From Escherichia coli (GTDB lineage Bacteria; Pseudomonadota; Gammaproteobacteria; Enterobacterales; Enterobacteriaceae), in NCBI RefSeq assembly GCF_003019035.1, contig NZ_CP027447.1: a DNA stretch of 64,000 nucleotides; one strand, 5' to 3'. Shown in pieces: positions 14,763 through 47,903 of this stretch. The position numbers and the translations under genes are program-made. The notes under the pieces were generated by a model, which saw nothing but the letters and a program-made list of their open reading frames with translations, was not told the origin of the DNA and searched no databases. Every line of letters starts with the position of its first letter. Positions within the stretch are counted from its first letter, which is position 1.

Positions 14763-14940
14763 GGCTTACTTTCTCTGCTGTAATGGTATGGGTGTTTCTG
14801 TGCACGCAAATCCGGCTGTGACACAAGGTGAGGTATTAAATAGAGGGGGAGTGAAAGGGGCAAATTATTAATAGGGTGAAAAAATAATTAATCGATTAAT
14901 TGCTTAATGGGAGTTATTTTCGCCAATCAGTCTGCGGTCT

Positions 14941-14981
14941 GTCCCCTCGCCCCATCCGGGGAGAGGGTTAGGGTGAGGGGG
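14941..14981. repeat. GC-rich hairpin repeat unit in the lfiM-lafK divergent intergenic region
   Basis: CCCCTCGCCCCATCCGGGGAGAGGGTTAGGGTGAGGGG; same family as 5193 and 8476. Confidence 0.6.
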
Positions 14982-15134
14982 CATCACAGATGTCGAAATT
15001 AACAGTATTAATATCTAACTAATTGTTTACCATCAAATAATATTTTTATTATCGTTTAATTCGAACTTGTTAATCCCGCCGGTGATACGCTTCAGAACAT
15101 CCTGTTTTCTGTCGCTACTGATATCGTTCACCCT

Positions 15135-16121
15135 ATGTCTGAACTTATTGCAACTGCCGCTTCCAGCATTAACGCTTTTACTCTGGCAAAGCGTGTCGCC
15201 GCCTTTAACGTGCCGGTGCTCATTCAGGGCGAAACCGGTGCGGGCAAAGAGTGCGTGGCGAAATATATTCACACAGTCGCCTTTGGTGAAAATGAAAGCG
15301 CACCCTATGTCGGCGTGAACTGCGCGGCGATCCCGGAAAATATGCTGGAATCTACCTTATTTGGCTACGACAAAGGCGCATTTACCGGCGCAATTGCCAG
15401 CGTGCCAGGAAAAATGGAACTGGCGAATAACGGCACCTTATTACTCGATGAAATTGGCGATATGCCGCTGGCGTTACAGGCCAAAATATTACGCGTATTG
15501 CAGGAACAACAGGTTGAGCGATTAGGCAGCAACCGACAAATTAAACTCAATTTTCGCCTGATTGCCTGTACCAATAAAAACCTTGAACAGGAAGTTGCCA
15601 CCGGGCGTTTTCGTGAAGATCTCTATTATCGTCTGGCGGTGATTCCTATTACCATGCCGCCGCTGCGTGAACGTCTGAACGATATTATTCCGCTGGCAGA
15701 GTCATTTATTAAAAAATACTCCACGGTGCTGGTGAAAAATATCACCCTGTCGGAATCTACCCGCCGGGCGCTGCTCAATTACCGCTGGCCCGGCAACGTG
15801 CGCCAGCTCGAAAACGCCATTCAGCGTGGAATGATTTTAAATCGCGACGGCGTGATTTTCCCGGATGCCTTAGGCCTGCCGGAAACAGACGTTGCCGACC
15901 ACAGTGAACTGCAATGGCCTGTTCAGCCTGCCGTCCACATTGCCGAAACCAGCGATTTAGGCCAGCACGGACGAAGTGCGCAATATCAATATATCGCCGA
16001 CCTGATGCGTAAATATCAGGGCAACCGCAGCAAAATTGCCGACCTGTTAGGCATTACCCCGCGCGCACTGCGCTATCGACTGGCCTCCATGCGCAAGCAC
16101 GGTATCGAAGTTTTCTCCTGA
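15135..16121 (+). CDS. lafK: Sigma54-dependent transcriptional activator lacking an N-terminal receiver/regulatory domain (AAA+ core plus C-terminal HTH only)
   Basis: Walker A GETGAGKE 30 aa from the start, GAFTGA motif, C-terminal HTH (...IADLLGITPRALRYRL...); no in-frame upstream extension. Confidence 0.8.
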   Translation: MSELIATAASSINAFTLAKRVAAFNVPVLIQGETGAGKECVAKYIHTVAFGENESAPYVGVNCAAIPENMLESTLFGYDKGAFTGAIASVPGKMELANNGTLLLDEIGDMPLALQAKILRVLQEQQVERLGSNRQIKLNFRLIACTNKNLEQEVATGRFREDLYYRLAVIPITMPPLRERLNDIIPLAESFIKKYSTVLVKNITLSESTRRALLNYRWPGNVRQLENAIQRGMILNRDGVIFPDALGLPETDVADHSELQWPVQPAVHIAETSDLGQHGRSAQYQYIADLMRKYQGNRSKIADLLGITPRALRYRLASMRKHGIEVFS

Positions 16122-22052: not shown

Positions 22053-22155
22053 ATGTTTAAAAAATCGCGTTTTTTCGACATATCCCCAAAACATGTCGAT
22101 GGCATAAACGTATTCCAACGACATGTTTAAAAATCGCATTTTATCGACATATCCC
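22053..22155. repeat. Two imperfect 33-bp direct repeats 70 bp apart, containing a TCGACAT/ATGTCGA inverted motif
   Basis: ATGTTTAAAAAATCGCGTTTTTTCGACATATCCCC (22053-22087) and ATGTTTAAAAATCGCATTTTATCGACATATCCC (22123-22155); second copy overlaps the stop of the minus-strand transferase gene. Confidence 0.7.
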
Positions 22156-24790: not shown

Positions 24791-25720
24791 TCACGTCAGC
24801 AGCGAAAATGCTGACAGCAGCGGCTCTGCCGCACATAACGACTGGAGCTGCTGGCGAATCGCCGCAGCATTTTCACTCTCTCGCCAGCGTTCAAACACCG
24901 CAAAAAGGGCGAAAATATCCTCCTTCCGCAGCGGTGAACCATCCAGCGTCCATAAACTGATTAACGTGCGGATGAGATAAAAATCACACACCAGCGGGCA
25001 ATAATCTGCTCCGTCTGCCTGCCCAATCACGTCGTGATAAACGCGGTAAATCAGCCAGTTGCGCATCATCCACGGCGCGGCGGCAAAATGCTGTTGCCAG
25101 GTGGTTTGCCACTGCACCTTAAGCTGCTGTTGCAACAAAGCTTCGCTGTTGGCGTCATGCAACGTCAGCAAAGTCACCTGCAACGGTAGCGAGGCTTTGC
25201 GCGGGCTTTCCGGCAAAATCGACCAGTCAAACGCAAAACTCCCGAGCAGCGTCACCAGTTGGCGCGCCAGTTGTGGCACGGGTGGGAGTTGGGCGAACTG
25301 TGCCTGTAGCGTGCCTTTTTGTGCATGATCCCCCAGCGCCTGTGGCAGCGTTGTCAAGCGGGCAAGAATATCTCCGTCTCTGCCCGGCATTTTACTGGCG
25401 CGGGAGAGCAAAATCCCGACGGCATACAGGGAAAGCTCCGGGGTTAAATCGGGGAGCGTAAGGGTACTCAAAATTATCTGGTTGACTATCGCATCGCGCG
25501 CGGATAGCTCGGCGGCATTGTCTTCCACAGGGCGGTAGGTGAGCTGTAAATCAAAGGCCCTGGCATCGTTGAGCACCGCTTTGCAACTTTCAATATCGGT
25601 CAATGCCAGGCTCTGGCGAATCTCATTCTTCCAGACCTTGCGGACGTACAAAGGCGAATCGGGATATTGCGTCATAAAATTGCGCACGTATTCCGGTTCG
25701 TAACATTCAATAAAACTCAT
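24791..25720 (-). CDS. Hypothetical protein (309 aa) in the Flag-2 variable/modification region
   Basis: Long ORF co-oriented with lfgN and the transferase gene; no motif I can assign; start chosen at the first ATG (ORF-track start is TTG). Confidence 0.6.
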   Translation of the reverse strand: MSFIECYEPEYVRNFMTQYPDSPLYVRKVWKNEIRQSLALTDIESCKAVLNDARAFDLQLTYRPVEDNAAELSARDAIVNQIILSTLTLPDLTPELSLYAVGILLSRASKMPGRDGDILARLTTLPQALGDHAQKGTLQAQFAQLPPVPQLARQLVTLLGSFAFDWSILPESPRKASLPLQVTLLTLHDANSEALLQQQLKVQWQTTWQQHFAAAPWMMRNWLIYRVYHDVIGQADGADYCPLVCDFYLIRTLISLWTLDGSPLRKEDIFALFAVFERWRESENAAAIRQQLQSLCAAEPLLSAFSLLT

Positions 25721-25847
25721 AGGTGGCTTCCAGTCTTTATTACTTTGCGGAATGTGCAATAAGCGTGCCGGGAATTTTTGTAATCAAAAACAAGGGATTG
25801 AGAATCAGGCGGAAAATCCGTTTCCGCGATGGGGGAAGGAATTGTCG

Positions 25848-26288: not shown

Positions 26289-26567
26289 TTAGTTCTGGAA
26301 AAAACTCAGCATGTCGCTGGCTAACTGTTCGGTGTCCACTTGCAGGCTGCCGGACGCCAGCATCGCTTGCATTTGCGCCACTTTGTCGCTGTCGATATCG
26401 CTCTCTTGCTGGTCGTTCAGCGTTTGCTGGGCAGACTGCAATCCCGCCTGGGTAATGTCGTCGGCGCTCAGCGTCGTGGCGGTGGTCGCCGTGCTTTTGC
26501 GCGGCTGACTGGAGCCTGCCATTGTGGCTGTCGGGCGATTGCCTGGCATCGTCGGGGTGATTTTCAT
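26289..26567 (-). CDS. lfgM: Anti-sigma28 factor FlgM homologue
   Basis: 92-aa ORF with FlgM-like C-terminal helices (...KVAQMQAMLASGSLQVDTEQLASDML...). Confidence 0.8.
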   Translation of the reverse strand: MKITPTMPGNRPTATMAGSSQPRKSTATTATTLSADDITQAGLQSAQQTLNDQQESDIDSDKVAQMQAMLASGSLQVDTEQLASDMLSFFQN

Positions 26568-26647
26568 CGCAACCTCGTCTCGGTATTTGGGTGGGTTACT
26601 CCGGTAAAGCGGTTAACAGGCGGCAAAACTTTAATCGCCTGCGCAAA

Positions 26648-27406
26648 TTACTCCGCGCTTACCGTCGTCACCACGCCGCTTTCTGCCACCATTGCGCTGA
26701 TGACCCGCTGGCTGCTGGCGTTACGTACTTTCACCATCTCGCCTTTGCGGCCATTTTTCAGCGCCACGCCGGGCATCGAGGCGGTGATCCCCGCGCTCTG
26801 GTAAACAATCATCACCGGCTCATCGCGTTCGACCAGCACTGGCGAAACCAGCTCTTCTTTGGTGATTGGTCTGCCCGGTTGCAACGCGTGCTTACTGCTG
26901 AAACCAATTGCGTCATCGAGCTCCATCAGCACATCCCGCCGCTGGGCGCTGACGTTGTAGGGCTTCAGCTCCACATCATTTGCCGTGAGCGGCGTATCGC
27001 GGGCAATCAGTGACTTTGCCATCACCACCGGCACCAGAACATCCGGGCGCACCGCGACGTTCATCTGCCAGCTTTGCGGGCAACTGACGGTGAAGTTCAT
27101 CCGGTTAAGGGCGATTTCCGCAGGCGACGTCAGCGTGACGCCGGGTGACGTTGTACAGGGCGCGGCGGTCGCAATCTGCGACGGAATATAGACCTTAAAG
27201 GTGTAGCGATAGTCATGCCATTGCCGCTGCTGCGCCAGCGATTCAATTTTTTGGCTCGCGGCATTCAGTACCTGGGCGTTGATTTGTTCCCGCGCGCTAT
27301 GTTGCACGGGATGGACGGCGGCGTAGCCCGGTAAGGCCAGCGCCAGGAGGAAATAAAACTTCCGCCTGCAAAATTGAAAACTCATAAACCCTTTCTCATC
27401 AGTCAC
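26648..27406 (-). CDS. lfgA: Flagellar P-ring assembly chaperone FlgA homologue
   Basis: 252-aa ORF with signal peptide, divergent from the flgB operon. Confidence 0.8.
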   Translation of the reverse strand: MTDEKGFMSFQFCRRKFYFLLALALPGYAAVHPVQHSAREQINAQVLNAASQKIESLAQQRQWHDYRYTFKVYIPSQIATAAPCTTSPGVTLTSPAEIALNRMNFTVSCPQSWQMNVAVRPDVLVPVVMAKSLIARDTPLTANDVELKPYNVSAQRRDVLMELDDAIGFSSKHALQPGRPITKEELVSPVLVERDEPVMIVYQSAGITASMPGVALKNGRKGEMVKVRNASSQRVISAMVAESGVVTTVSAE

Positions 27407-27414
27407 TTAAAAAT

Positions 27415-27430
27415 TGGCACAGCGATTGCA
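27415..27430 (+). promoter_or_regulatory. Sigma54 (-24/-12) promoter upstream of lfgB
   Basis: TGGCAC-AGCGA-TTGCA, exact match to TGGCAC-N5-TTGCW. Confidence 0.7.
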
Positions 27431-30989: not shown

Positions 30990-31775
30990 ATGAACGCAGC
31001 ACTATGGATCAGCAAAACCGGCCTCTCGGCGCAGGATGCTGAAATGAGCGCGATTGCCAACAACATCGCCAACGTTAACACCACCGGCTTCAAGCGCGAT
31101 CGGGTGATGTTTCAGGATCTGTTCTACCAGACCCAGGAAGCGCCGGGCGCGATGCTCGACCAGAACAACATCATGCCGACCGGGCTGCAATTCGGGAGCG
31201 GCGTACGCATTGTCGGTACCCAGAAAACCTTCACCGAAGGCAACGTTGAGACCACCGACAACGCGATGAATGTCGCCATTATGGGGCAGGGATTTTTGCA
31301 GGTGCAAAAGGCCAACGGCGATATCGCCTATACCCGCGATGGCAACTTACAGGTGAACGCCGACGGCGTACTGACCAACTCGCAGGGCTTGCCGTTGCAG
31401 CCGGAAATCGACGTTCCGGCGGGGGCGACCAACGTTGCGTTTGGTGAGGACGGCACGGTGACGGCGATCTTACCCGGCGACAGCGATGTGACCGAGTTAG
31501 GGCAACTGACACTGGTGAACTTCGCTAACCCGGCGGGGCTCTCCGCCGAGGGCGACAACCTGTATCTGGAAACCGCTGCCAGCGGTCAGCCGACCGAAGG
31601 CGTACCGGGCGAAGATGGGCTTGGCACCTTGCAGGATAACGCGCTGGAAGGATCGAACGTGGATATCGTCAACGAGATGGTGGCGATGATTACGGTGCAA
31701 CGCGCGTACGAGATGAACGCCAAAATGGTCTCGGCGGCAGACGATATGTTGCAGTACATCAGTCAGACGCTGTAA
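30990..31775 (+). CDS. lfgG: Flagellar distal rod protein FlgG homologue
   Basis: 261-aa rod-family ORF. Confidence 0.9.
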   Translation: MNAALWISKTGLSAQDAEMSAIANNIANVNTTGFKRDRVMFQDLFYQTQEAPGAMLDQNNIMPTGLQFGSGVRIVGTQKTFTEGNVETTDNAMNVAIMGQGFLQVQKANGDIAYTRDGNLQVNADGVLTNSQGLPLQPEIDVPAGATNVAFGEDGTVTAILPGDSDVTELGQLTLVNFANPAGLSAEGDNLYLETAASGQPTEGVPGEDGLGTLQDNALEGSNVDIVNEMVAMITVQRAYEMNAKMVSAADDMLQYISQTL

Positions 31776-33937: not shown

Positions 33938-33950
33938 GGGGCGCGCTTTG

Positions 33951-34060
33951 CCCCTCACCCTAACCCTCTCCCCAAAGGGGCGAGGGGACCGATTGAGCGC
34001 GGAGGTGAATATGGCGCAGGTTTTCGCCCTCTCCCTGTGGGAGAGGGCCGGGGTGAGGGC
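33951..34060. repeat. Two GC-rich hairpin repeat units (33951-33987 and 34026-34060) between lfgJ and lfgK
   Basis: CCCTCTCCCC-AAA-GGGGCGAGGGG and CCCTCTCCC-TGT-GGGAGAGGGCCGGGGTGAGGG; same family as 5193. Confidence 0.6.
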
Positions 34061-34142
34061 ATCAGCGCGCACCATTATCCACTTAAGAATCCCCATCTTC
34101 ACGCCGCTTTTAACCGGCACGATTTACCGGTAAGGATCCAAC

Positions 34143-37760: not shown

Positions 37761-38603
37761 TCAGCATTTCTGCACAGTATTTAACAACTTCTCTAAATTC
37801 TGATACATCGCGCGATTAATATCGCTGTTCTGCCAGCCTTCCACATTAAAAGTTAATTGCCAGCTACCATTGCACTGGTTGCGCAGAACAATATCACTTT
37901 CCAGTCGGTTACGAACATATTTATAATAAGTTGTCATTGTCATATTATGCGCTGACAATAAATTATCGAGTTTGTCTTTTCCTGGTTCGAGGGTTTGTGA
38001 CAGTAACGGTACGGAATTATTTTCCTTTCCAGAACTAAGATGAAATATTTTTATTCTTGGACTGTTAATTGACTCTTTTACCAGTTGCGGGGCGTCAGGT
38101 GTACTTTTCAAGTGTGAATACCCCACGGTCGAGCCAATAAATATAACAGCCGCGGTCAACGCTAACCCCATCAGTCCTTTATGTTTTTTTCTAACTGGTA
38201 CAGGCGGTGTTGTCGAAGATATCTCTTCTGACACAGTTTCCTGTACCTGGTCGGTAATCATCAGCTTTTCCGCAGGCGATAACTCCGGCAAAGACACATA
38301 CTCTTTATTGCACAAGTAACCTTTCTTCGGAATTGTTTTAATAATGTTCTGTTGTTTGCCATCATCGTCGATAGCAACGCGTAACGCATGGATCGCCGTC
38401 GGCAGGCTGTTACCGCCGACTATGCGGTTCTTCCATACTTCGGCACATAAATAAGATCGCGATAAAACCACATCGGCATTTTTTGCTAATGTTTCCAGCA
38501 AAATAAAATGGTATTCGCCGAGACGACGTGTTTCACCCGTTTCGCAATGTATTAAGGCATTAAGCGACGGGTCCATCCGCCAGTTGTTGATAATAATACT
38601 CAT
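37761..38603 (-). CDS. lafZ: ToxR/CadC-like membrane-anchored transcriptional regulator (N-terminal winged-helix domain, one TM helix, periplasmic C-terminal domain)
   Basis: Winged-helix core ...LSRSYLCAEVWKNRIVGGNSLPTAIHALRVAID...; hydrophobic segment GLMGLALTAAVIFIGSTVGY; gene is markedly AT-rich. Confidence 0.75.
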   Translation of the reverse strand: MSIIINNWRMDPSLNALIHCETGETRRLGEYHFILLETLAKNADVVLSRSYLCAEVWKNRIVGGNSLPTAIHALRVAIDDDGKQQNIIKTIPKKGYLCNKEYVSLPELSPAEKLMITDQVQETVSEEISSTTPPVPVRKKHKGLMGLALTAAVIFIGSTVGYSHLKSTPDAPQLVKESINSPRIKIFHLSSGKENNSVPLLSQTLEPGKDKLDNLLSAHNMTMTTYYKYVRNRLESDIVLRNQCNGSWQLTFNVEGWQNSDINRAMYQNLEKLLNTVQKC

Positions 38604-39089
38604 AGTTGAGTTTACCTTAGCAAGGGATAAATGTTTCCTGATAGTGCTTTGCATAAAGCACAGTCTTATACGTCCCTGAGAAGATGATTTTTCTGCGTGA
38701 TAATTAATATTTTATGGTAATAGGATTATTCTTAATCACTATATGGCGTGGAAATGTAACGAAATGACAGGACAGGTACAATAGCCAAATGTGTACTATT
38801 TGCAACGCAATGTAAATTTTGGCATCAGTACATTGAGAACAAAACGCGATAATTGATGACAATCTTAACTATATCAAGCATTTGATAAAGACATATTTTG
38901 ATACCTGGCCATGTGGCAGATATTGCTAATAATCTTTTTATCTGAATTTAAACTCTGCTTTTTTTTAGCTAAAAGTGGCATCGGATAATACGTGGCGAAA
39001 AAATTTTAACGGCGATTTTAAGTTTGCTCCTGAGGTGTCGTTTTTACAGGGTATCGAAACGAAAACGATTAATCCCAAGGAGCAGTATC

Positions 39090-40004
39090 ATGTTATCTAT
39101 TAACACCAATAACGCCTCAATGGCCGCCGTTAATGCAATCAGCAAAAGCAGCTCTTCTCTGTCTACATCTATGGAACGCCTGGCAACGGGTAACCGGATT
39201 AACTCTTCTGCCGATGACGCAGCGGGCAAACAAATTGCTAACCGTCTGACAGCACAGTCCAGCGGTATGGGTGTGGCGCTGAGCAACATCAATGATGCCA
39301 CCGCGATGCTGCAAACCGCCGACAGCATGTTCGACGAAATGTCTGATGTGCTGGGTCGTATGAAAGACCTGTCAACTCAGGCAGCGAACGGCACCTACAG
39401 CGACGACGATCTACAGGCGATGCAGGACGAATACGACGAACTGGGTCAGCAGATGTCTGACATGCTGCAAAACACCACTTACGGCGGCACCAACCTGTTC
39501 GGTGTTTCCGGTACCAGCAACACCGGTACTGACGGTCTGTTCCAGAGCGCAGTAACTTTCCAGGTGGGCGCGGAATCTTCCGACACCATGACCGTGAATA
39601 TTTCAAGCCAGCTGAATACCCTGGTGACGGATCTTTCTGCTATCAGCAACTCCTTCAGTGCGGATCAGGCTGACACCACTGGCACCGCAGGCGTTTCTGG
39701 CGGTACTGAGCTGACTGCGTCTGGCTCGGCTAACCAGATGATTACCAGCATTTCGACCGCGATGGATGATGTTTCGCAGATCCAATCCAAGCTGGGTGCG
39801 TCTATTAACCGTCTGAACGACACTGCCAACAACCTGACCAGCATGCAGGACAACACCGAAGTCGCTATCGGTAACATTATGGATACCGACTACGCGACGG
39901 AAGCGTCCAACATGACTAAACAGCAGGTGCTGATGCAGACCGGCATCACCATGCTGAAACAGTCCAACAGCATGTCCAGCATGGTTTCCAGCCTGCTGCA
40001 GTAA
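39090..40004 (+). CDS. lafA: Lateral flagellin
   Basis: 304-aa ORF with flagellin N-terminus (MLSINTNNASMAAVNAI...RLATGNRINSSADDAAG) and C-terminus (...MTKQQVLMQTGITMLKQSNSMSSMVSSLLQ); AGGAG RBS. Confidence 0.9.
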   Translation: MLSINTNNASMAAVNAISKSSSSLSTSMERLATGNRINSSADDAAGKQIANRLTAQSSGMGVALSNINDATAMLQTADSMFDEMSDVLGRMKDLSTQAANGTYSDDDLQAMQDEYDELGQQMSDMLQNTTYGGTNLFGVSGTSNTGTDGLFQSAVTFQVGAESSDTMTVNISSQLNTLVTDLSAISNSFSADQADTTGTAGVSGGTELTASGSANQMITSISTAMDDVSQIQSKLGASINRLNDTANNLTSMQDNTEVAIGNIMDTDYATEASNMTKQQVLMQTGITMLKQSNSMSSMVSSLLQ

Positions 40005-40014
40005 TGGCGGACTT

Positions 40015-40045
<31 letters not shown>

Positions 40046-40162
40046 ACGAACAACACCGCCTGCGGGCGGTGTTGTGCTTTCTGCGGCAGGCGTATTTCCG
40101 CCAGACCGGAAATGGCTTTTCCGCCTGTTTTTCAATCTATTGATTCTTCACATAAAAAATAT

Positions 40163-40177
40163 TGGCACGCCTTTTGC
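40163..40177 (+). promoter_or_regulatory. Sigma54 (-24/-12) promoter upstream of lafB
   Basis: TGGCAC-GCCTT-TTGC, about 30 bp upstream of the lafB start. Confidence 0.7.
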
Positions 40178-40209
40178 CAATAACCTGACATCGTTATCCG
40201 GAGTCATCA

Positions 40210-41526
40210 ATGATCAACCCAAGAACCATTGCGCAAGAAATCGCCTATGCGGATGTTGCCACTCAGGCGGCAAACTTGCAGGAGAAGCAGAGCGAGCTGG
40301 ATGCTGAAAGCAGCGGCCTGGACTCGCTCAGCTCAGCGTTGAGCGATTTTCAGAGCGCCGTTGACGCGCTGAACAGCGATACTGACGGCCCGGTGACGTT
40401 TGCCGCCACCAGCAATAATGACTCGGCGACCGTTTCCGCTAACTCGCAGGCACAGGCGGGAAGCTACTCGTTTTTCGTTGAGCAACTGGCGCAGGGGCAG
40501 CAAACCACGTTCAGTATGGGCGACGACGCCTTTTCCGCCACCGGCACTTTTGAACTGACGATGGGCGACAGCACCATGGATATTGATCTGTCGGCGGCGG
40601 ATCAAAACGGTGACGGCGACGGTTTTATCGACGCCAGTGAACTGGTGAATGCGATTAACGACTCTGATGACAATCCGGGCGTGTCGGCGGCACTGGTAAA
40701 AACCGACGGCACCACCACCATTATGCTCACCTCCGATAGCACCGGGGCGCAGAGCGCATTTTCGGTGAGCGTAACGGGGCATGACACCAGCAACGATAGC
40801 GCCAGCGCGCCCGTTGCCACGGATGTTTCCTCCGCTCAGGACGCGATTATTCATCTCGGCAGTGCCACAGGGCCTGAGATCACCAACAGCAGCAATACGT
40901 TTGATGATGTGATCCCCGGTGTCACCATGACTTTCACCGAAGTCAGCGATTCTGACAGCGACCTCACTACCTTTAACATTAGCGAAGATTCCAGCGCCAG
41001 CCAGGAGAAAGTGCAGACCTTTGTCGATGCCTATAACACCCTGATCGATACGGTTGATTCGCTAACCACCCACGGTGATGACAGTACCAGCGCCGGGGTA
41101 TTTGCAGGCGACGCAGGACTCAGTTCACTGGCGAACCAGCTCGATGATATCGCCCATGCCAGCTACAACGGGGTATCGATTGTTGACTATGGCATCACGC
41201 TTGATTCTCACGGCCACTTACAGATTGACTCCGACCAGTTCAACGACGAAATGGCGAAAAATCCTGACGGTCTGACCTCTATTTTCGTTGGCGACAACAG
41301 CATGGTGGCACAGATGGACGACCTGATTAACACCTACACGGACTCCAGCAACGGCATCATCACCCTGCGCCAGCAGAACATTGACGATCAGATGAGCAAA
41401 ATTCAGGACGAAGGCGATCAGCTTACTGATACCTATAACGCCAACTACGACCGTTATCTCGAGGAGTACACCAACACGCTGGTCGAGGTGTACACCATGA
41501 AAGCCAGCATGGCGGCATTCGCGTAA
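40210..41526 (+). CDS. lafB: Flagellar filament cap protein FliD homologue
   Basis: 438-aa ORF immediately after the flagellin gene. Confidence 0.8.
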   Translation: MINPRTIAQEIAYADVATQAANLQEKQSELDAESSGLDSLSSALSDFQSAVDALNSDTDGPVTFAATSNNDSATVSANSQAQAGSYSFFVEQLAQGQQTTFSMGDDAFSATGTFELTMGDSTMDIDLSAADQNGDGDGFIDASELVNAINDSDDNPGVSAALVKTDGTTTIMLTSDSTGAQSAFSVSVTGHDTSNDSASAPVATDVSSAQDAIIHLGSATGPEITNSSNTFDDVIPGVTMTFTEVSDSDSDLTTFNISEDSSASQEKVQTFVDAYNTLIDTVDSLTTHGDDSTSAGVFAGDAGLSSLANQLDDIAHASYNGVSIVDYGITLDSHGHLQIDSDQFNDEMAKNPDGLTSIFVGDNSMVAQMDDLINTYTDSSNGIITLRQQNIDDQMSKIQDEGDQLTDTYNANYDRYLEEYTNTLVEVYTMKASMAAFA

Positions 41527-41548
41527 CTCAGAAGGAATATCCCTAAAG

Positions 41549-41941
41549 ATGTACCAAGTACAGGACGGCTATTCGCAATATAAAGAGATCGATCTCGCGG
41601 CGCGTACTGCGGCGGCATCGCCTCTGGAACTGGTGCTGGTGCTGTTTTCTGGTCTGATGGACGAGCTGGAACGCGCCAAAAGCCATATTGAAGGGCGGCG
41701 TTTCGAGAAGAAAGCCCAGAGCATCAATAAATGCATCGACATTCTCAATGCGCTCACCAGTTCGCTGGAGTTTGAAACTGGCGGCGAGCTGGTGGTCAAC
41801 CTTTCGCGCCTCTATGACCACTGTGTGTATCGCTTGTATGAGGCTAGCGGCGAACTGTCGGCAGAGAAAATCGATGAAGTGATGCTGATCTTAAGCAACC
41901 TGCGTGAAGGCTGGGAAGGGCTTTCGGGCAAGCTGGGTTAA
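41549..41941 (+). CDS. lafC: Flagellin chaperone FliS homologue
   Basis: 130-aa four-helix ORF (...LELVLVLFSGLMDELERAK...). Confidence 0.85.
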   Translation: MYQVQDGYSQYKEIDLAARTAAASPLELVLVLFSGLMDELERAKSHIEGRRFEKKAQSINKCIDILNALTSSLEFETGGELVVNLSRLYDHCVYRLYEASGELSAEKIDEVMLILSNLREGWEGLSGKLG

Positions 41942-41945
41942 GACG

Positions 41946-42257
41946 ATGGAAAAACAACGCAGGCAACTTTTCGCGCTGGTTGAAGCGATGAACGAAGCCC
42001 TCGACAAGCAACGCTGGCGACGCCTTCCGGCACTGCATCAGCAGTTGATGCGCCAGTTTCACGATTACGTGGCGGCGGAAACCGACGCGGCGCAGTTGTG
42101 TGCGGTGAAGGCGCAGCTGTACGGCGCGTTTAATGCCCTGATTAAACGGCGCGAGCAGCGTGCAGAAGTGTTGACGGCGCGTATGGAACAGCATCAGCGG
42201 CATCAGGAAGGCGTACTGGCCTACTCAATTGTTAATTTACTTTCGGAGAAGTCATGA
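41946..42257 (+). CDS. lafD: FliT-like flagellar chaperone (small helical protein)
   Basis: 103-aa ORF following the fliS homologue; assignment by position. Confidence 0.55.
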   Translation: MEKQRRQLFALVEAMNEALDKQRWRRLPALHQQLMRQFHDYVAAETDAAQLCAVKAQLYGAFNALIKRREQRAEVLTARMEQHQRHQEGVLAYSIVNLLSEKS

Positions 42258-43312
42258 ATCCGGCATTGCTTGCCACGCTCGGAACACTTGCGGAAACGGC
42301 GTCGCTGAAAGCGGATATTTTACCGCCGGTGAGTAGTGAAAACGCGCCCGCGTTTACCCTGCCGAAAATGGCGGTCGCGGCGGTGGCGGAGCGCGTTCAT
42401 AGCGCAAAAACCAGTCAGCAACAGGCGACGCGCCCGCAGGAGAACGATCCGGTGGCGATGCAGGCGCTAATGGCGCTGTTACTTCCGCAACCTGCCGCGC
42501 CGCATCAGGTCACGCCGCAGCCGCGAAACGTCGCAACATCGCCGGTTATCCAGCAATTGACGAAAGCGGTGGTGCAAAACGCGCCGCAACGCCCGACGCA
42601 GCAGCAGGAATTCACGCCGTTGCCGCCGCAGTTGCAGGAGCTGATCAGTCAGTTGCCGCAGGCGAAACCCGAACAGCAGGCCAGACTGGCAATTTACGCC
42701 AGTGAAGATTTACATGCCATTGCGCCGACGCAGCCGCGCGTCTCAACACAGCCAGCTCGCCCGAAACCTGAACTAACCCGTGTGAACGCGCGCCCGCAGG
42801 TCGAGCGTAAAACGGAAAAAGTGCCGGACAGCGAACCGGTTATTGCGCGTGCGGTGTTGCAGGTTAAGACGCCGGATCTGGTCAGCGAACATCAGGAGAT
42901 TGTCGCCAAACCAGCCACGCTTTCGATGGACGAACTGGGCGAAAAACTGACGACGCTGTTGAAAGATCAGATCCACTTTCAGCTCAACAAACAACAGCAG
43001 ATCTCCACCATCCGTCTCGATCCACCGTCGCTTGGCAAGCTCGAGATCGCCGTACAACTCGACAACGGCAAACTGATGGTGCACATCGGCGCGAACCAAA
43101 GTGAAGTTTGCCGCGCGTTACAGCAGTTTAGCGACGATCTCCGCCAGCATCTGACGGCGCAAAATTTTATGGAGGTGAACGTACAGGTTTCCTCCGAAGG
43201 GCAGTCGCAGCAACAACAGTCGGGCCATCAGCAGGAAGAGGTGAGTGCCGCCTTACAGCTTGATGATGCGCCTCAATTTCAACAGAACGAATCCGTTTTG
43301 ATCAAAGTGTAA
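42254..43312 (+). CDS. lafE: Hook-length control protein FliK homologue
   Basis: Pro/Gln-rich central region and FliK-like C-terminal domain (...IRLDPPSLGKLEIAVQLDNGKLMVHIGAN...). Confidence 0.8.
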   Translation: MNPALLATLGTLAETASLKADILPPVSSENAPAFTLPKMAVAAVAERVHSAKTSQQQATRPQENDPVAMQALMALLLPQPAAPHQVTPQPRNVATSPVIQQLTKAVVQNAPQRPTQQQEFTPLPPQLQELISQLPQAKPEQQARLAIYASEDLHAIAPTQPRVSTQPARPKPELTRVNARPQVERKTEKVPDSEPVIARAVLQVKTPDLVSEHQEIVAKPATLSMDELGEKLTTLLKDQIHFQLNKQQQISTIRLDPPSLGKLEIAVQLDNGKLMVHIGANQSEVCRALQQFSDDLRQHLTAQNFMEVNVQVSSEGQSQQQQSGHQQEEVSAALQLDDAPQFQQNESVLIKV

Positions 43313-43319
43313 AGGCAAT

Positions 43320-43787
43320 ATGAAGAAAATCGTGGTGGCGGGCGTGGTCAGCGCCGTTCTGGCGTTGGTGGTCGGCGCTGGAGCTGGATGGGGTGTCTGG
43401 CATCATTATGCCGGAAAAGGAAAACCGACTGCCGTTGCGCGGACGGAAGCGGTAGAAACCCTGGATGAAAGCAAAAGCGTGTTTGTGACGCTGCCGGAAA
43501 CCATTGTCACGCTGCATGACAACAACGGCGCGGACCATTATTTGTCGGCGGAATTAGTGATGGTGGTTGCCAGTGACAAAGAAGCGGAAAAAATAAAGCA
43601 TCAGGAGCCGTTGTATCAAAGTATTGCGGTTGAATGCCTGACGGAAATGAAATTTGAAGATTTGCGGGGCATGAAAATATCTGCCATCCGCAAACTGATT
43701 TCGGATGCGTTAAAGAAAGATCTTCAGCGTCGCAAAATGAGCGCACCGTATAAGGATTTGCTGGTGAAAAAAGTGGTCTTCCAGTAA
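43320..43787 (+). CDS. lafF: Flagellar basal body-associated protein FliL homologue
   Basis: 155-aa ORF with single N-terminal TM helix. Confidence 0.8.
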   Translation: MKKIVVAGVVSAVLALVVGAGAGWGVWHHYAGKGKPTAVARTEAVETLDESKSVFVTLPETIVTLHDNNGADHYLSAELVMVVASDKEAEKIKHQEPLYQSIAVECLTEMKFEDLRGMKISAIRKLISDALKKDLQRRKMSAPYKDLLVKKVVFQ

Positions 43788-43806
43788 TCACCAGGCGGAT
43801 ATAAAC

Positions 43807-44526
43807 ATGCTACAGGACGTATTATTCGAGTCAGAAGAATTTGCTGCCGCGCCGGTATTAACCCCGCAGCAGGAGAGCCACTACTTGCAGGCCTATTTAC
43901 CACTGGTGCGTAAAGTGGTGCGGCAACTTGCCCCGCAGTGTAATTGCATTATTGATCGTCAGGATATGGAACAAACGGCGTTAATGGGGCTGCTTAATGC
44001 CATTCGCCGCTACGGGCTGCCGGACGAAGGTTTTGCGGGCTATGCCGTGCACCGTATTCGCGGCGCGATCCTGGATGAGCTGCGCGCTCTCGACTGGCGA
44101 CCGCGCCAGCTGCGACAGAAATATCATCAGATGAAAGACCTGATTCGCGAAACGCGTAAAAAACTGGGGCACGAACCGGAGTGGCAGGAGCTGGCTGAGG
44201 AAGGGATCTCGCATGAAGATTATCTCGAATATCAGCAACTGGAAGGGGCGGAAACGCTCGCCAGCCTGGACGAACTGCTGAACGGCGAAGGGCCAGGCAT
44301 TCCGCTTGCTGGCAGAGACCTGGAAGATCAGTTTGTCACGCAGAAAATGCTGCAACACGCGCTTTCACAATTAAGCGAAAAAGAGCAACTGATCCTCTCC
44401 ATGTATTACCAGCATGAGATGAATCTCAAAGAGATTGCGCTGGTATTAGGGCTAACCGAGGCCCGAATTTGTCAACTGAATAAACAGATCGCGCAGAAAA
44501 TTCGTGATTTTGTCTATCCGAATTAA
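43807..44526 (+). CDS. lafS: Flagellar sigma factor (sigma28/FliA family)
   Basis: 239-aa ORF with sigma70 region 2 and region 4 HTH (...LKEIALVLGLTEARICQLNKQ...). Confidence 0.85.
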   Translation: MLQDVLFESEEFAAAPVLTPQQESHYLQAYLPLVRKVVRQLAPQCNCIIDRQDMEQTALMGLLNAIRRYGLPDEGFAGYAVHRIRGAILDELRALDWRPRQLRQKYHQMKDLIRETRKKLGHEPEWQELAEEGISHEDYLEYQQLEGAETLASLDELLNGEGPGIPLAGRDLEDQFVTQKMLQHALSQLSEKEQLILSMYYQHEMNLKEIALVLGLTEARICQLNKQIAQKIRDFVYPN

Positions 44527-44538
44527 AGTGAAGAAATC

Positions 44539-45402
44539 ATGCAAAAAATATTAGGTTTACTGGTGGTGCTCGGCTGCGTATTTGGCGGTTATTTTGAAGC
44601 GGGCGGCCAATTAGTGGCTATCTGGCAGCCTGCAGAGATAGTTATTATTTTAGGTGCTGGTTTCGGGGCGATGATTATTGGGAACCCGAAACATGTGCTG
44701 AAAGAGATTGCCCATCAAATTAAAGGCGTGATCAGTAAAAAACAGCTCGGGCCGGAGTTTCAGCGCCAGCTATTAATGTGCCTGTATGAGTTGCTTGAAA
44801 TGGTACAAAACGGCGGTCTGCGGATGTTGGATCAGCATATTGAGCAGCCGGAAGAGAGTACCGTTTTCCAGAAATACCCGCTGGTGTTAACCCAGAAGCG
44901 GCTGGTGACTTTTATTGCCGATAACTTTCGCCTGATGGCGATGGGTAAAATCGACGCCCATGAACTGGAAGGCATTCTCGATCAGGAGCTGGACACCGCT
45001 GAAGAGTCGCTGTTAACGCCGTCACGCTCGCTGCAACGGACCGCCGAAGCGATGCCGGGATTTGGTATTTGCGCGGCAGTGCTGGGCATCATCATCACCA
45101 TGCAGTCAATTGACGGTTCTATCGCCCTGATTGGCCTGAAAGTGGCGGCAGCGCTGGTGGGGACATTTTTAGGCGTGTTTATTTGCTACTGCCTGATGGA
45201 CCCGCTCGCCAACGCCATGGAACAGCAGGCGCGGGCGGAACATTCGCTGCTGGAGTGTGTGCGTACCGTGCTGGTGGCCCAGGCGGGCGGCAAACCGACG
45301 CTGCTGGCGGTGGACGCCGGGCGTAAGCTGCTGCATCTGGCGTCCAAACCGACCTTCGCCAACCTCGATGCATGGGTGAATGCGATGCTGGAGCAAGAAT
45401 AA
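44539..45402 (+). CDS. lafT: Flagellar motor stator protein MotA homologue
   Basis: 287-aa four-TM ORF. Confidence 0.85.
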   Translation: MQKILGLLVVLGCVFGGYFEAGGQLVAIWQPAEIVIILGAGFGAMIIGNPKHVLKEIAHQIKGVISKKQLGPEFQRQLLMCLYELLEMVQNGGLRMLDQHIEQPEESTVFQKYPLVLTQKRLVTFIADNFRLMAMGKIDAHELEGILDQELDTAEESLLTPSRSLQRTAEAMPGFGICAAVLGIIITMQSIDGSIALIGLKVAAALVGTFLGVFICYCLMDPLANAMEQQARAEHSLLECVRTVLVAQAGGKPTLLAVDAGRKLLHLASKPTFANLDAWVNAMLEQE

Positions 45403-45404
45403 GC

Positions 45405-46328
45405 ATGAGAAAGACGGGCAACCGCCGCGAGCGTGGGGCAAAAACCACCATCGTCCGGCGGCAGATCAAAAAGAATCATGCCGGGCACCACGGCGGGGCG
45501 TGGAAGGTAGCGTTCGCCGACTTTACCCTGGCGATGATGGCGCTATTTATGACGCTGTGGATTGTCAATAGCGTCAGTAAATCCGAGCGTGAAAGCATTA
45601 TCGCCGCGCTGCACGGGCAGTCGATTTTTAACGGTGGTGGGCTGTCGCCGTTAAATAAAATCAGCCCGTCTCATCCGTCAAAACCTGCCACCGTGGCGGT
45701 GCCGGAAGAGACGGAGAAAAAAGCGCGCGACGTCAACGAGAAAACGGCGCTGCTGAAGAAGAAATCCGCCACCGAGCTTGGTGAGCTGGCAACCAGCATC
45801 AACACCATTGCCCGTGATGCGCATATGGAAGCGAATCTGGAGATGGAGATTGTCCCGCAGGGATTACGCGTGCTGATTAAAGACGACCAGAATCGCAATA
45901 TGTTCGAACGCGGCAGCGCGCAGATTATGCCGTTCTTTAAAACGCTGCTGGTGGAGCTCGCGCCAGTGTTCGACTCGCTCGATAACAAAATTATTATTAC
46001 CGGGCATACCGATGCGATGGCCTACAAAAACAATATCTACAACAACTGGAACCTTTCGGGTGACCGCGCGCTTTCGGCTCGTCGGGTGCTGGAAGAGGCA
46101 GGAATGCCGGAAGATAAAGTGATGCAGGTGAGCGCAATGGCGGACCAGATGCTGCTGGACGCGAAAAATCCGCAAAGCGCGGGCAACCGGCGCATTGAGA
46201 TTATGGTGCTGACTAAAAGCGCGTCCGATACGCTGTATCAATACTTTGGTCAGCATGGGGATAAAGTGGTGCAGCCGCTGGTGCAAAAGCTGGATAAGCA
46301 GCAGGTGCTTTCGCAGCGAACGCGTTAA
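45405..46328 (+). CDS. lafU: Flagellar motor stator protein MotB homologue (OmpA-like C-terminal domain)
   Basis: N-terminal TM plug region and OmpA-like domain (...TGHTDAMAYKNNIYNNWNLSGDRALSARRVL...); start at MRKTGNRRE. Confidence 0.85.
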   Translation: MRKTGNRRERGAKTTIVRRQIKKNHAGHHGGAWKVAFADFTLAMMALFMTLWIVNSVSKSERESIIAALHGQSIFNGGGLSPLNKISPSHPSKPATVAVPEETEKKARDVNEKTALLKKKSATELGELATSINTIARDAHMEANLEMEIVPQGLRVLIKDDQNRNMFERGSAQIMPFFKTLLVELAPVFDSLDNKIIITGHTDAMAYKNNIYNNWNLSGDRALSARRVLEEAGMPEDKVMQVSAMADQMLLDAKNPQSAGNRRIEIMVLTKSASDTLYQYFGQHGDKVVQPLVQKLDKQQVLSQRTR

Positions 46329-46398: not shown

Positions 46399-47454
46399 AT
46401 GCGTAAAATCATTCATGTGGATATGGACTGCTTTTTCGCAGCGGTGGAGATGCGCGACAATCCTGCCCTGCGCGATATCCCTATTGCTATTGGCGGCAGC
46501 CGCGAACGTCGGGGGGTGATCAGCACCGCCAATTATCCCGCGCGTAAATTTGGCGTACGTAGCGCTATGCCGACAGGGATGGCACTCAAATTATGCCCAC
46601 ATCTCACGCTGCTTCCAGGGCGCTTTGACGCCTACAAAGAAGCCTCAAATCATATCCGCGAAATTTTCTCGCGCTATACCTCGCGCATTGAACCGTTATC
46701 ACTGGATGAAGCCTATCTCGACGTCACCGATAGTGTGCATTGCCACGGTTCTGCGACCCTCATCGCCAAGGAAATCCGTCAGACGATCTTTAACGAGCTG
46801 CAACTGACGGCATCTGCGGGCGTTGCGCCGGTAAAGTTTCTCGCCAAAATTGCTTCCGACATGAATAAACCCAACGGTCAGTTTGTGATTACGCCGGCAG
46901 AAGTTCCGGCATTTCTGCAAACCTTACCGCTGGCAAAAATTCCCGGCGTCGGCAAAGTCTCGGCGGCAAAACTGGAAGCGATGGGGCTGCGGACCTGCGG
47001 TGATGTGCAAAAGTGTGATCTGGTGACTCTGCTCAAACGTTTTGGCAAATTTGGCCGCATTTTGTGGGAGCGTAGTCAGGGGATTGACGAGCGCGACGTT
47101 AACAGTGAACGGTTGCGAAAATCCGTCGGCGTGGAACGCACGATGGCGGAAGATATTCATCACTGGTCTGAATGTGAAGCGATTATCGAGCGGCTGTATC
47201 CTGAACTTGAACGCCGTCTGGCAAAGGTAAAACCTGATTTACTGATTGCTCGCCAGGGGGTGAAATTAAAGTTTGATGATTTTCAGCAAACCACTCAGGA
47301 GCACGTCTGGCCGCGGCTGAATAAAGCTGATCTAATCGCCACCGCGCGTAAAACCTGGGATGAACGTCGCGGCGGGCGCGGTGTGCGTCTGGTGGGGCTG
47401 CATGTGACGTTACTTGACCCTCAAATGGAAAGACAACTGGTGCTGGGATTATGA
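46399..47454 (+). CDS. dinB: DNA polymerase IV (Y-family translesion polymerase)
   Basis: 351-aa ORF beginning [22 protein letters not shown]... Confidence 0.95.
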
Positions 47455-47903
47455 ATAACATACAAATAAGAAACTATCAGCCTTGCGATTTTCAGCAACT
47501 ATGCGCTATTTTCATTAGAGCAGTTACGATGACCGCCAGTCAGCACTATTCTCCACAGCAAATTGCCGCCTGGGCGCAGATTGACGAATCTCGCTGGAAA
47601 GATAAACTCGCGAAATCACAAGTGCGGGTTGCAGTCATTAATGCACAACCGGTTGGTTTTATTTCCCGCATTGAACATTATATCGATATGTTATTTGTTG
47701 ACCCGGAATACACCCGCCGTGGGGTTGCCAGCGCTTTGTTAAAACCTTTGATTAAGTCTGAATCCGAACTTACGGTGGACGCCAGCATAACCGCAAAGCC
47801 CTTTTTTGAACGTTATGGTTTTCAGACAGTTAAGCAGCAGCGCGTTGAATGCCGGGGAGCGTGGTTTATTAATTTTTATATGCGTTATAAACCGCAACAT
47901 TAA
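47451..47903 (+). CDS. yafP: GNAT family N-acetyltransferase
   Basis: 150-aa ORF overlapping the dinB stop by 4 nt. Confidence 0.85.

Follow-up and report, generated by a model that had tools for sequence, protein, structure and literature searches.

How the late genes of the second flagellar system of Escherichia coli are brought into play may depend on what transcribes its sigma-28 gene. In the lateral-type Flag-2 locus this gene, lafS, lies within an operon headed by lafB, just downstream of lafA, and the question is whether lafB is served by a sigma-54 promoter, which would place lafS under the activator LafK and make lafA a late gene. Ren et al. (2005) reportedly gave the first description of the Flag-2 locus, in E. 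coli 042. A second flagellar locus of this kind occurs in roughly a quarter of complete E. coli genomes, clinically important lineages included: in a BLAST search, 1269 of 5426 complete genomes held most of a query covering positions 39000-41600. The stretch of E. coli chromosome analysed here (64,000 nucleotides; the window) carries an intact Flag-2 locus in which all listed open reading frames are intact, and the same 39000-41600 segment is 98.9% identical to a chromosome in which lafA, fliD and fliS are annotated at this place (BLAST, complete E. coli genomes).

According to the annotated neighbourhood, the minus-strand genes lfhAB-lfiRQPNM are followed by lafK-lfiEFGHIJ and then by a variable region that encodes a glycosyltransferase and a FliB-like lysine-N-methylase (LafV). 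Beyond it lie lfgNMA on the minus strand, lfgB-L, lafW, lafZ, lafA and lafBCDEFSTU, and finally dinB. Among the window's own proteins, Pfam and NCBIfam scans recovered FliD, FliS, a FliK-like protein, FliL, a FliA/WhiG sigma factor, MotA and LafU, together with the FliB-like methylase and a sigma-54 activator. From lafB to lafU the genes are spaced between a 4-nt overlap (lafD/lafE) and gaps of at most 22 nt, and a scan of this interval found plus-strand terminators and promoters no more often than expected by chance. Since the genes are so tightly packed and plus-strand terminators are not in excess, lafS would most simply be part of a transcript that starts in front of lafB. The same order, from fliD to motB, recurs in distant loci whose LafB is only 31-35% identical.

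The initial annotation had pointed to a consensus sigma-54 motif, TGGCAC-GCCTT-TTGC, at 40163-40177, about 30 bp before lafB. It is present as an exact match on the plus strand, ending 32 nt upstream of the lafB ATG at 40210, with a GGAG at 40200-40203. The GG and GC doublets are exactly 10 bp apart. The extended consensus TGGCACG-N4-TTGCW specifies 12 positions, of which 11 agree, the odd one being the base after TTGC, which is C and not A or T. A C at this place is typical of the E. coli clade, against the consensus. With the usual sigma-54 spacing, transcription is predicted to start at about 40188-40190. Exact TGGCAC-N5-TTGC occurs twice in the 64 kb (both strands) against 0.32 copies expected, a count reached in 3 of 100 shuffles, and both copies are intergenic, lie inside Flag-2 and face the first gene of an operon (lfgB and lafB). 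When one mismatch is allowed, the number of sigma-54 patterns in the window is not above chance (9 vs 7.15); what carries statistical weight is therefore that exact matches occur, where they are placed and how well they are conserved. A weighted scan covering the two strands of the window (128 kb) ranks three intergenic sites highest, 32-37 nt before lfgB, lafV and lafB. The features discussed below are collected in the table.

Table. Features of the Flag-2 locus that bear on lafB transcription (positions in the window)
Feature	Position	Strand	Sequence	Remarks
Predicted core sigma-54 promoter, lafB operon	40163..40177	+	TGGCACGCCTTTTGC	TGGCAC-GCCTT-TTGC = TGGCAC-N5-TTGC; -24 GG 40164-40165, -12 GC 40176-40177
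Dyad, candidate enhancer (LafK box) of lafB	40108..40122	+	GGAAATGGCTTTTCC	centre 49.5 bp upstream of -24 GG, about -74 from predicted start
A/T-rich IHF-like element	40132..40145	+	TCAATCTATTGATT (YAANNNNTTGATW)	between dyad and promoter; read by eye in anchored sequences
REP element	40015..40044	+		between lafA stop and terminator; BLAST median 23 sites per E. coli genome
lafA terminator hairpin	40049..40075	+	AACAACACCGCC-TGCG-GGCGGTGTTGT, then GCTTTCTG	strong GC-rich 11-bp stem
Operon lafB-lafC-lafD-lafE-lafF-lafS-lafT-lafU	40210..46328	+		fliD, fliS, fliT-like (small ORF), fliK-like, fliL, sigma-28, motA, motB-like
lafS, FliA/WhiG-family sigma-28 factor	43807..44526	+		NF009091, 446 bits, cutoff 339
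lfgM, anti-sigma-28 (FlgM) homologue	26289..26567	-		annotation of 98%-identical locus
lafK, sigma-54 enhancer-binding protein	15135..16121	+		GAFTGA; Walker A GETGAGKE; Walker B; HTH_8 residues 284-317
Second exact sigma-54 promoter (predicted)	27415..27429	+	TGGCACAGCGATTGC	lfgA-lfgB intergenic, 37 nt before lfgB
lfgB dyad	27349-27363	+	GGAAATAAAACTTCC	centre 60.5 bp upstream of GG
Third sigma-54-type promoter (predicted)	25755..25770	-	CGGCACGCTTATTGCA	34-35 nt before lafV (FliB-like lysine-N-methylase), then GT2 glycosyltransferase
lafV dyad	25811-25825	-		centre 49.5 bp upstream of GG
Sigma-28 (LafS)-type promoter of lafA (predicted)	39018..39046	+	TTAAGTTT-N11-GTCGTTTT	about 43 nt before ATG at 39090
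Candidate LafS-type promoter of lfgK-lfgL-lafW	34083..34112	+	TTAAGAAT-N12-GCCGCTTT	found by eye
Candidate LafS-type promoter of lfgM-lfgN	26605..26634	-	TAAAGTTT-N12-ACCGCTTT	found by eye

The motif before lafB has been kept over a large evolutionary distance. Among seven E. coli variants TATTGGCACGCCTTTTGCCA is invariant; the spacer upstream of it has undergone substitutions as well as REP insertions, of 45 and 91 bp. One genome per species was then scanned with an alignment of six LafB sequences. The 22 relevant loci obtained in this way encode LafB proteins of 55-100% identity and belong to Escherichia spp., Pseudocitrobacter, many Citrobacter, Phytobacter, Leminorella and an Enterobacter sp. 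In every one of these 22 enterobacterial loci TGGCAY-N5-TTGCW precedes the start codon by about 30-43 nt, and the spacer sequences differ. Seven more distant homologues (31-35% LafB identity) include, by their cluster names, two Pseudomonas (one of P. fragi type, one Pseudomonas sp.), one Erwinia/Pantoea and Vibrio alfacsensis. Five of them, namely the two Pseudomonas, the Erwinia/Pantoea and two unnamed loci, have exact TGGCAC-N5-TTGC 28-65 nt upstream; another (L041, with 104 bp of upstream sequence only) gives a poor match, TGGTAC-N5-ACGC. The Vibrio sites are less consensus-like than that of E. coli: TGGCGT-N5-TTGC in V. alfacsensis and, as a predicted site before lafB of V. parahaemolyticus, TAGGCACGTATCTTGCGAT, that is AGGCAC-N5-TTGC (PMC9817140).

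In an anchored alignment of 23 non-redundant loci, which reach from Escherichia as far as Erwiniaceae, Pseudomonas and Vibrio, TGGC and TTGC before lafB/fliD(L) are invariant. Information content reaches 2 bits at T-G-G-C and at T-T-G-C, 1.7 at the A and about 1 at the Y and the G; the spacer has 0.05-0.95 bits, and the bases downstream have about 0.1-0.7. Such an analysis takes the best-scoring 16-mer per locus and is biased to the consensus, which is mitigated by the fact that only three sites reach the score on the two strands of the window. The promoter motif is kept whichever gene adjoins it upstream, lafA or flgN. As TGGC and TTGC stay constant where the spacer and the flanks vary, the comparison marks the lafB motif as a sigma-54 recognition footprint and not as the trace of a hairpin or of a coding constraint.

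A sigma-54 promoter calls for an activator. LafK is the sole sigma-54 activator encoded in the Flag-2 locus; the protein (328 aa) consists of a Sigma54_activat domain from residue 6, an AAA lid and an HTH_8 domain, with no N-terminal sensory or regulatory domain. Plesiomonas, by comparison, has no lafK. The gene for sigma-54 itself, rpoN, belongs to the E. coli core genome and is absent from the window. The lfgB and lafV sites seem to be built on the same plan as that of lafB, and the FliB-like orthologue in Leminorella shows the same arrangement of sigma-54 site and dyad. It can be inferred that the same LafK/sigma-54 module also heads lfgB-J and the lafV-glycosyltransferase operon. The lfiM-lafK intergenic region shows neither a sigma-54 site nor a dyad.

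This dyad, GGAAA-N5-TTTCC, came to light when the lafB upstream regions were aligned on the promoter. At lafB it belongs to an extended element (40095-40127) that also has a TTTCC half-site on its upstream side and GCCTG at its end. The 20-nt pattern GGAAANNNNNNTTCCGCCTG, which comprises the extended dyad with GCCTG, has exactly three occurrences in the window, one each before the sigma-54 sites of lafB, lfgB and lafV; even with two mismatches, only 0.59 matches would be expected. All 24 lafB upstream regions have a dyad scoring at least 8/10, and in 22 of them its centre lies 47.5-52.5 bp from the GG, the remaining two being at 60.5 bp in Vibrio and at 94.5 bp in one Pseudomonas; a score of at least 9/10 is reached by 1.7% of random stretches. 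The distance from dyad to GG, about 49.5 bp at lafB and lafV and about 61 (60.5) bp at lfgB, thus falls into two values that differ by one helical turn. The longer one is found again, together with the sigma-54 site, at the lfgB promoters of five further genera (Pseudescherichia, Leminorella, Paramixta, Cedecea and Serratia; 60.5-62.5 bp). The arms are constant (GGAA/TTCC, no covariation), the 5-nt spacer varies even between E. coli strains, and at lfgB the dyad sits within the coding sequence of the divergent lfgA. Among the E. coli variants, REP insertions shift the end of the lafA gene and leave the distance between dyad and promoter as it is. Because of this fixed distance, the constant arms and the location inside lfgA, the dyad has the character of a promoter-linked protein site and not of a terminator, and its co-occurrence with the three sigma-54 sites suggests LafK as the protein that binds it. 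Only one full dyad is seen upstream of lafB, fewer than the two or more sites on which many enhancer-binding proteins rely. Between dyad and promoter, most species have similar A/T-rich elements, for which a function in binding IHF can be supposed.

The spacer between lafA and the promoter is itself structured. The initial annotation had the motif follow a REP/hairpin terminator region of lafA, and both the REP and a terminator hairpin indeed precede it. The lafA stop is at 40002-40004, and the fold of 40002-40162 is markedly stable (z = -6.1), with a second small hairpin also present between the stop and the motif. A search of 38500-40400 with Rfam yielded a sub-threshold match to the REP-derived naRNA4 at the REP element, which has extra insertions in some strains, and no match at the sigma-54 motif. 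Most other genera with lafA upstream have a hairpin of the lafA type as well, usually with a clean T-run, which is interrupted in E. coli.

A search for a sigma-28-type promoter, which the initial annotation had proposed, did turn up such an element upstream of lafA: TTAAGTTT-N11-GYCGYWTT is conserved in 16 aligned lafA upstream regions. The window's -35 agrees in 7 of 8 positions with the TAAAGTTT-like consensus, and its -10 in 4 of 8 with GCCGATAA, at a spacing of 11 nt. A scan with the FliA consensus (TAAAG-N13-15-GCCGATAA) gave nothing upstream of lafA, since the -10 departs from GCCGATAA, and the promoter emerged only from the cross-species alignment. In the lafA-lafB spacer (40005-40209), neither the FliA consensus nor the LafS-type motif (TTAAGTTT-N11/12-GYCGYTTT, a provisional model) was found. 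The resulting map has predicted sigma-54 promoters at lfgB, lafB and lafV, sigma-28-type ones at lafA, lfgKL and lfgMN, and neither at lfiM and lafK. The wider proposal, with lafS under sigma-54 and LafK and lafA as a late gene, is borne out in each element that can be read from the DNA, namely the operon order, the invariant -24/-12, a complete LafK and a sigma-28-like promoter before lafA. A cascade in which LafK and sigma-54 would lead to lafS, and LafS to lafA, is supported by these elements, and we consider it highly probable that 40163-40177 is a functional LafK/sigma-54 promoter driving lafBCDEFSTU.

Other readings have to be weighed against this one. The motif is embedded in a palindrome, TATTGGCA-N7-TGCCAATA at 40160-40182, which might be an antisense terminator or the operator of a dimeric regulator, with an incidental likeness to sigma-54 promoters. 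A terminator scan reports it on the minus strand, with a perfect 8-bp stem and a T-run behind it, and the RNA fold (-14.3 kcal/mol, z = -2.5) is in line with this. However, the palindrome is restricted to the E. coli/Pseudocitrobacter clade, with its -12 region reading TTGCCAATA. In most other genera TTGCT runs into unrelated sequence and the repeat is lost, yet TGGC and TTGC stay invariant, and no compensatory changes that would preserve the stem were seen. Part of the symmetry is built into the consensus, TGGCA and TGCCA being reverse complements. No gene converges or ends there on the minus strand, and as an intrinsic terminator the palindrome was rejected for its missing plus-strand U-tract and its unconserved stem. 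We regard this explanation as extremely unlikely. It could also be imagined that the motif is a chance or decayed likeness in a cryptic locus, with lafB expressed by read-through from the sigma-28 promoter of lafA or from an unrecognised sigma-70 promoter. One-mismatch motifs are, after all, not enriched in the window, and laboratory cultures do not express Flag-2 (PMC4637896). Some read-through is conceivable across the interrupted U-tract of the E. coli lafA terminator (GCTTTCTG), and the homologous fliD operon of V. parahaemolyticus is also listed as sigma-28 dependent (class III; PMC6963403). In the E. coli spacer, by contrast, such a motif was not found, and the single sigma-70-like match runs into the start codon. 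Read-through would also create a logical loop, lafA itself needing LafS, and neither chance nor decay accounts well for an element that is invariant over so large an evolutionary distance, behind lafA or flgN alike, and coupled to a conserved dyad at a fixed spacing. This alternative is very improbable, too.

The LafK/sigma-54 promoter has a nearer competitor in the idea that the promoter is real and another activator serves it, or that the dyad belongs to another factor such as LafZ or is the terminator hairpin of the upstream gene. E. coli has about a dozen other sigma-54 activators, and LafZ, with its Trans_reg_C domain, is encoded near lafB. The dyad was flagged as terminator-like, with a short hairpin and CCTGTTTTTC behind it, and lies downstream of a same-strand gene at lafB and at lafV. 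Yet its arms are conserved in sequence without covariation, with a spacer that varies among E. coli strains. The dyad keeps its distance to the promoter and not to the upstream gene end, which is all that the REP insertions move; inside the divergent lfgA a terminator would make no sense, and the true terminator of lafA is the separate hairpin at 40049-40075. As a terminator, the dyad was rejected. Against LafZ it counts that winged-helix proteins of the OmpR/ToxR type usually bind direct repeats and not inverted ones. Within the window the extended dyad is confined to the three Flag-2 promoters; this suggests a factor specific to the locus, whose sole encoded activator is LafK. On balance, this set of alternatives is unlikely.

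For the promoter under LafK and sigma-54, the following course of events can be proposed. Sigma-54 RNA polymerase would form a closed complex on GG 40164-65 and GC 40176-77, and LafK would bind the dyad GGAAA-N5-TTTCC, centred at about -74. Its activity is probably set by its amount, since it has no sensory domain. Bending of the intervening DNA, with the IHF-like A/T-rich element, would bring the two together, and ATP hydrolysis by LafK would open the promoter, with transcription from about 40189. The transcript would carry lafS, and LafS would presumably be held by LfgM, as a checkpoint, until the hook-basal body is complete. Once freed, LafS could read TTAAGTTT-N11-GTCGTTTT of lafA and probably also the promoters of lfgKL-lafW and lfgMN, by which the flagellin would become a late gene.

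Such a promoter is reminiscent of pspA, a sigma-54 promoter served by an activator without regulatory domain: PspF has about 325 aa and consists of AAA+ and HTH only. Similarly, the lafB region combines a -24/-12 core, a dyad suited to a Fis-type HTH, an A/T-rich IHF-like element and, in LafK with its 328 aa, an AAA+-plus-HTH activator. It differs in the sequence of the dyad and in that one full dyad is visible. We know of no PspA-like negative regulator of LafK.

Liu et al. (2015, PMC4578781) had already predicted the sigma-54 sites before lfgB and lafB, in Flag-2 of E. coli PCN033. Their paper concerns the same locus and the same two genes, with the same consensus TGGCAC-N5-TTGC and the same argument from the Sigma54-activation domain of LafK; the part of it that was available contains no mention of cross-genus conservation, the lafV site, the GGAAA-N5-TTTCC dyad or LafS-type promoters. 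As a prediction, then, the lafB promoter is already known, and its regulatory logic is textbook for lateral flagella. In V. parahaemolyticus, LafK and sigma-54 activate class II operons that include flgB-J(L) and fliDSTKLA-motAB(L) (Stewart and McCarter 2003, via PMC6963403, PMC4481668, PMC3658858, PMC3930126). There the fliD operon contains the sigma-28 gene, lafA, flgKL and flgMN form the sigma-28-dependent class III (PMC6963403, PMC4481668, PMC3658858), and fliM(L) is LafK-independent (PMC3930126). Operon for operon, the predicted E. coli map equals this hierarchy. The dyad of Vibrio lafB, on the other hand, is one helical turn further out (60.5 bp) than that of E. coli lafB. Purified RpoN gave no EMSA shift with a V. 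parahaemolyticus lafB promoter fragment despite the predicted site, a result obtained in a different organism (PMC9817140).

In the lateral flagellar hierarchy of Aeromonas hydrophila (Wilhelms et al. 2013, via PMC5013049, PMC4481668), class I of the three comprises the LafK-independent operons of fliM(L) and lafK, flgB(L) belongs to class II and lafA to class III. Class I agrees with the E. coli lfiM-lafK region, which has neither sigma-54 site nor dyad. The Aeromonas promoters were tested by reporter fusions, whereas those of E. coli are predictions. Unlike the Vibrio system, E. coli Flag-2 has never been shown to be expressed, and in the ST131 strain EC958 LafA was undetected in laboratory culture (PMC4637896); because of this, the lafB promoter may be silent under usual conditions. 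Nevertheless, the middle genes of Flag-2, the sigma-28 gene among them, appear to be served by LafK/sigma-54 promoters that are intact and strongly conserved. What prevents expression is therefore likely to be found upstream, in the expression of lafK or in its signal, and not in promoter decay, and forced expression of lafK would be the obvious way to switch Flag-2 on.

The lafB promoter adds no new concept, as it repeats the lateral-flagella paradigm of Vibrio and Aeromonas. What may be new is the candidate LafK box, a modest by-product with its two phasing classes and the extension to a flagellin-modification operon; a loose literature search brought nothing relevant on a LafK binding site. 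A metagenome scan with the composite pattern GGAAA-N5-TTTCC-N{36,52}-TGGCAC-N5-TTGC discriminates poorly. Among the matches listed, 80 loci were read: at least 14 are lafA-lafB spacers, one of them distant, about 40 of the 80 are a single recurrent and unrelated human-gut sequence (gap 50; probably coding), and the rest are singletons. The composite pattern is thus not exclusive. The full proposal would be that GGAAA-N5-TTTCC is an undescribed LafK box of lateral and Flag-2 systems, with a regulon of at least three E. coli operons (lfgB-J, lafBCDEFSTU and the flagellin-modification operon lafV-GT) and with two classes of spacing that differ by one helical turn and are conserved across Enterobacteriaceae, Erwiniaceae, Pseudomonas and Vibrio, and that LafS reads a distinct -10 (GYCGYTTT, not GCCGATAA). 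Taken as a whole, it has about even chances of being right. If it is true, the distinct -10 of LafS could insulate the late genes of Flag-2 from the FliA regulon of Flag-1 in strains that have both.

Each sigma-54 promoter of the Flag-2 locus is preceded by one copy of the dyad GGAAA-N5-TTTCC, a candidate binding site for LafK, the only sigma-54 enhancer-binding protein encoded in the locus. The dyad centre lies about 49.5 bp from the -24 GG at lafB; for lfgB the figure is about 61 bp. The dyad-to-promoter distance is fixed at Flag-2 and lateral flagellar operons of many genera (loci L014-L042 and L163-L167 of the comparison set). A third sigma-54-type promoter precedes lafV, and shares both its upstream dyad and its spacing with lafB. 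The available part of the PCN033 genome paper (PMC4578781) gives the lfgB and lafB sites only, the lafV site being absent from its list. In variable region 1, the predicted lafV promoter heads the genes for the lysine-N-methylase and the glycosyltransferase, so the modification of flagellin would share its regulation with the middle genes.

Features of the Flag-2 locus, in window coordinates
Feature	Position	Strand	Remark
Dyad, lafB	40108-40122		GGAAA-N5-TTTCC
Dyad, lfgB	27349-27363		GGAAA-N5-TTTCC
Dyad, lafV	25811-25825		GGAAA-N5-TTTCC
Sigma-54-type promoter, lafV	25755-25770	-	CGGCACGCTTATTGCA
lafV	24791-25720	-	FliB-like lysine-N-methylase
Glycosyltransferase gene	22141-24612	-	GT2
Candidate LafS promoter	39018-39046	+	common -35 TTAAGTTT/TAAAGTTT
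Candidate LafS promoter	34083-34112	+	same -35
Candidate LafS promoter	26605-26634	-	same -35
Perfect 8-bp inverted repeat	40160-40182		TATTGGCA-N7-TGCCAATA
GC-rich palindromic repeat, lfiM-lafK intergenic region	~14941-14981		CCCTCTCCCC...GGGGAGAGGGTTAGGGTGAGGG type
Two more copies, lfgJ-lfgK intergenic region	~33945-34070		same type

An extra dyad-like site, GGAAATCGACGTTCC, lies inside lfgG (31403-31417, plus strand). At the expected distance from it no convincing sigma-54 core was found, the best nearby sequence being CGGCACGGTGACGGCG at 31451; this site could mark an internal promoter for lfgH-J or else be a chance match.

At the lafB promoter itself, TTGCCAATA is the sequence of the -12 region solely among members of the E. 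coli/Pseudocitrobacter clade, so that there, and only there, the promoter becomes part of a perfect inverted repeat. The lafA-lafB spacer is polymorphic and can carry additional REP-type insertions (window 40005-40050 compared with the E. coli variants L007 and L008), of 45 bp in strain ST540 and 91 bp in DETEC-C31. As both are situated upstream of the lafA terminator, the distance between dyad and promoter is unchanged. The arms of this terminator hairpin (40049-40075), ACACCGCC and GGCGGTGT, are kept in sequence and position across genera (L014-L040), even at loci where LafA identity is only 45%, and a single locus, L026, has a compensatory change (TACCGC/GCGGTA). Such conservation is unusually strong for a plain terminator.

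The candidate promoters of LafS, the sigma-28 factor of the locus, have GYCGYTTT as their -10 element in place of the GCCGATAA of the FliA consensus, and the promoter specificities of LafS and FliA may therefore be separate in strains carrying both flagellar systems. In the divergent lfiM/lafK promoter region (14763-15134), neither a sigma-54 site nor the dyad nor a LafS-type motif was found, as would be expected if these genes belonged to class I and were expressed independently of LafK, like their counterparts in Aeromonas and Vibrio.

In the metagenome pattern scan, the most frequent sequence among the matches listed was a recurrent one, GGAAATGATCTTTCC...CACTGGCACAGATCTTGC (gap 50), present at L049, L052, L054, L055, L057, L058 and at least about 35 other loci, all from human gut metagenomes. 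No similarity to Flag-2 proteins was found for it, and it probably belongs to a coding region in some organism that is abundant in the gut.

At 47448-47460, dinB joins yafP directly. NZ_CP134805, the closest complete genome, is annotated with the yafN-yafO toxin-antitoxin pair between these genes; by BLAST, the window lacks that pair. Enterobacter sp. kpr-6 (L026) has an element similar to the GC-rich palindromic repeats downstream of lafA.
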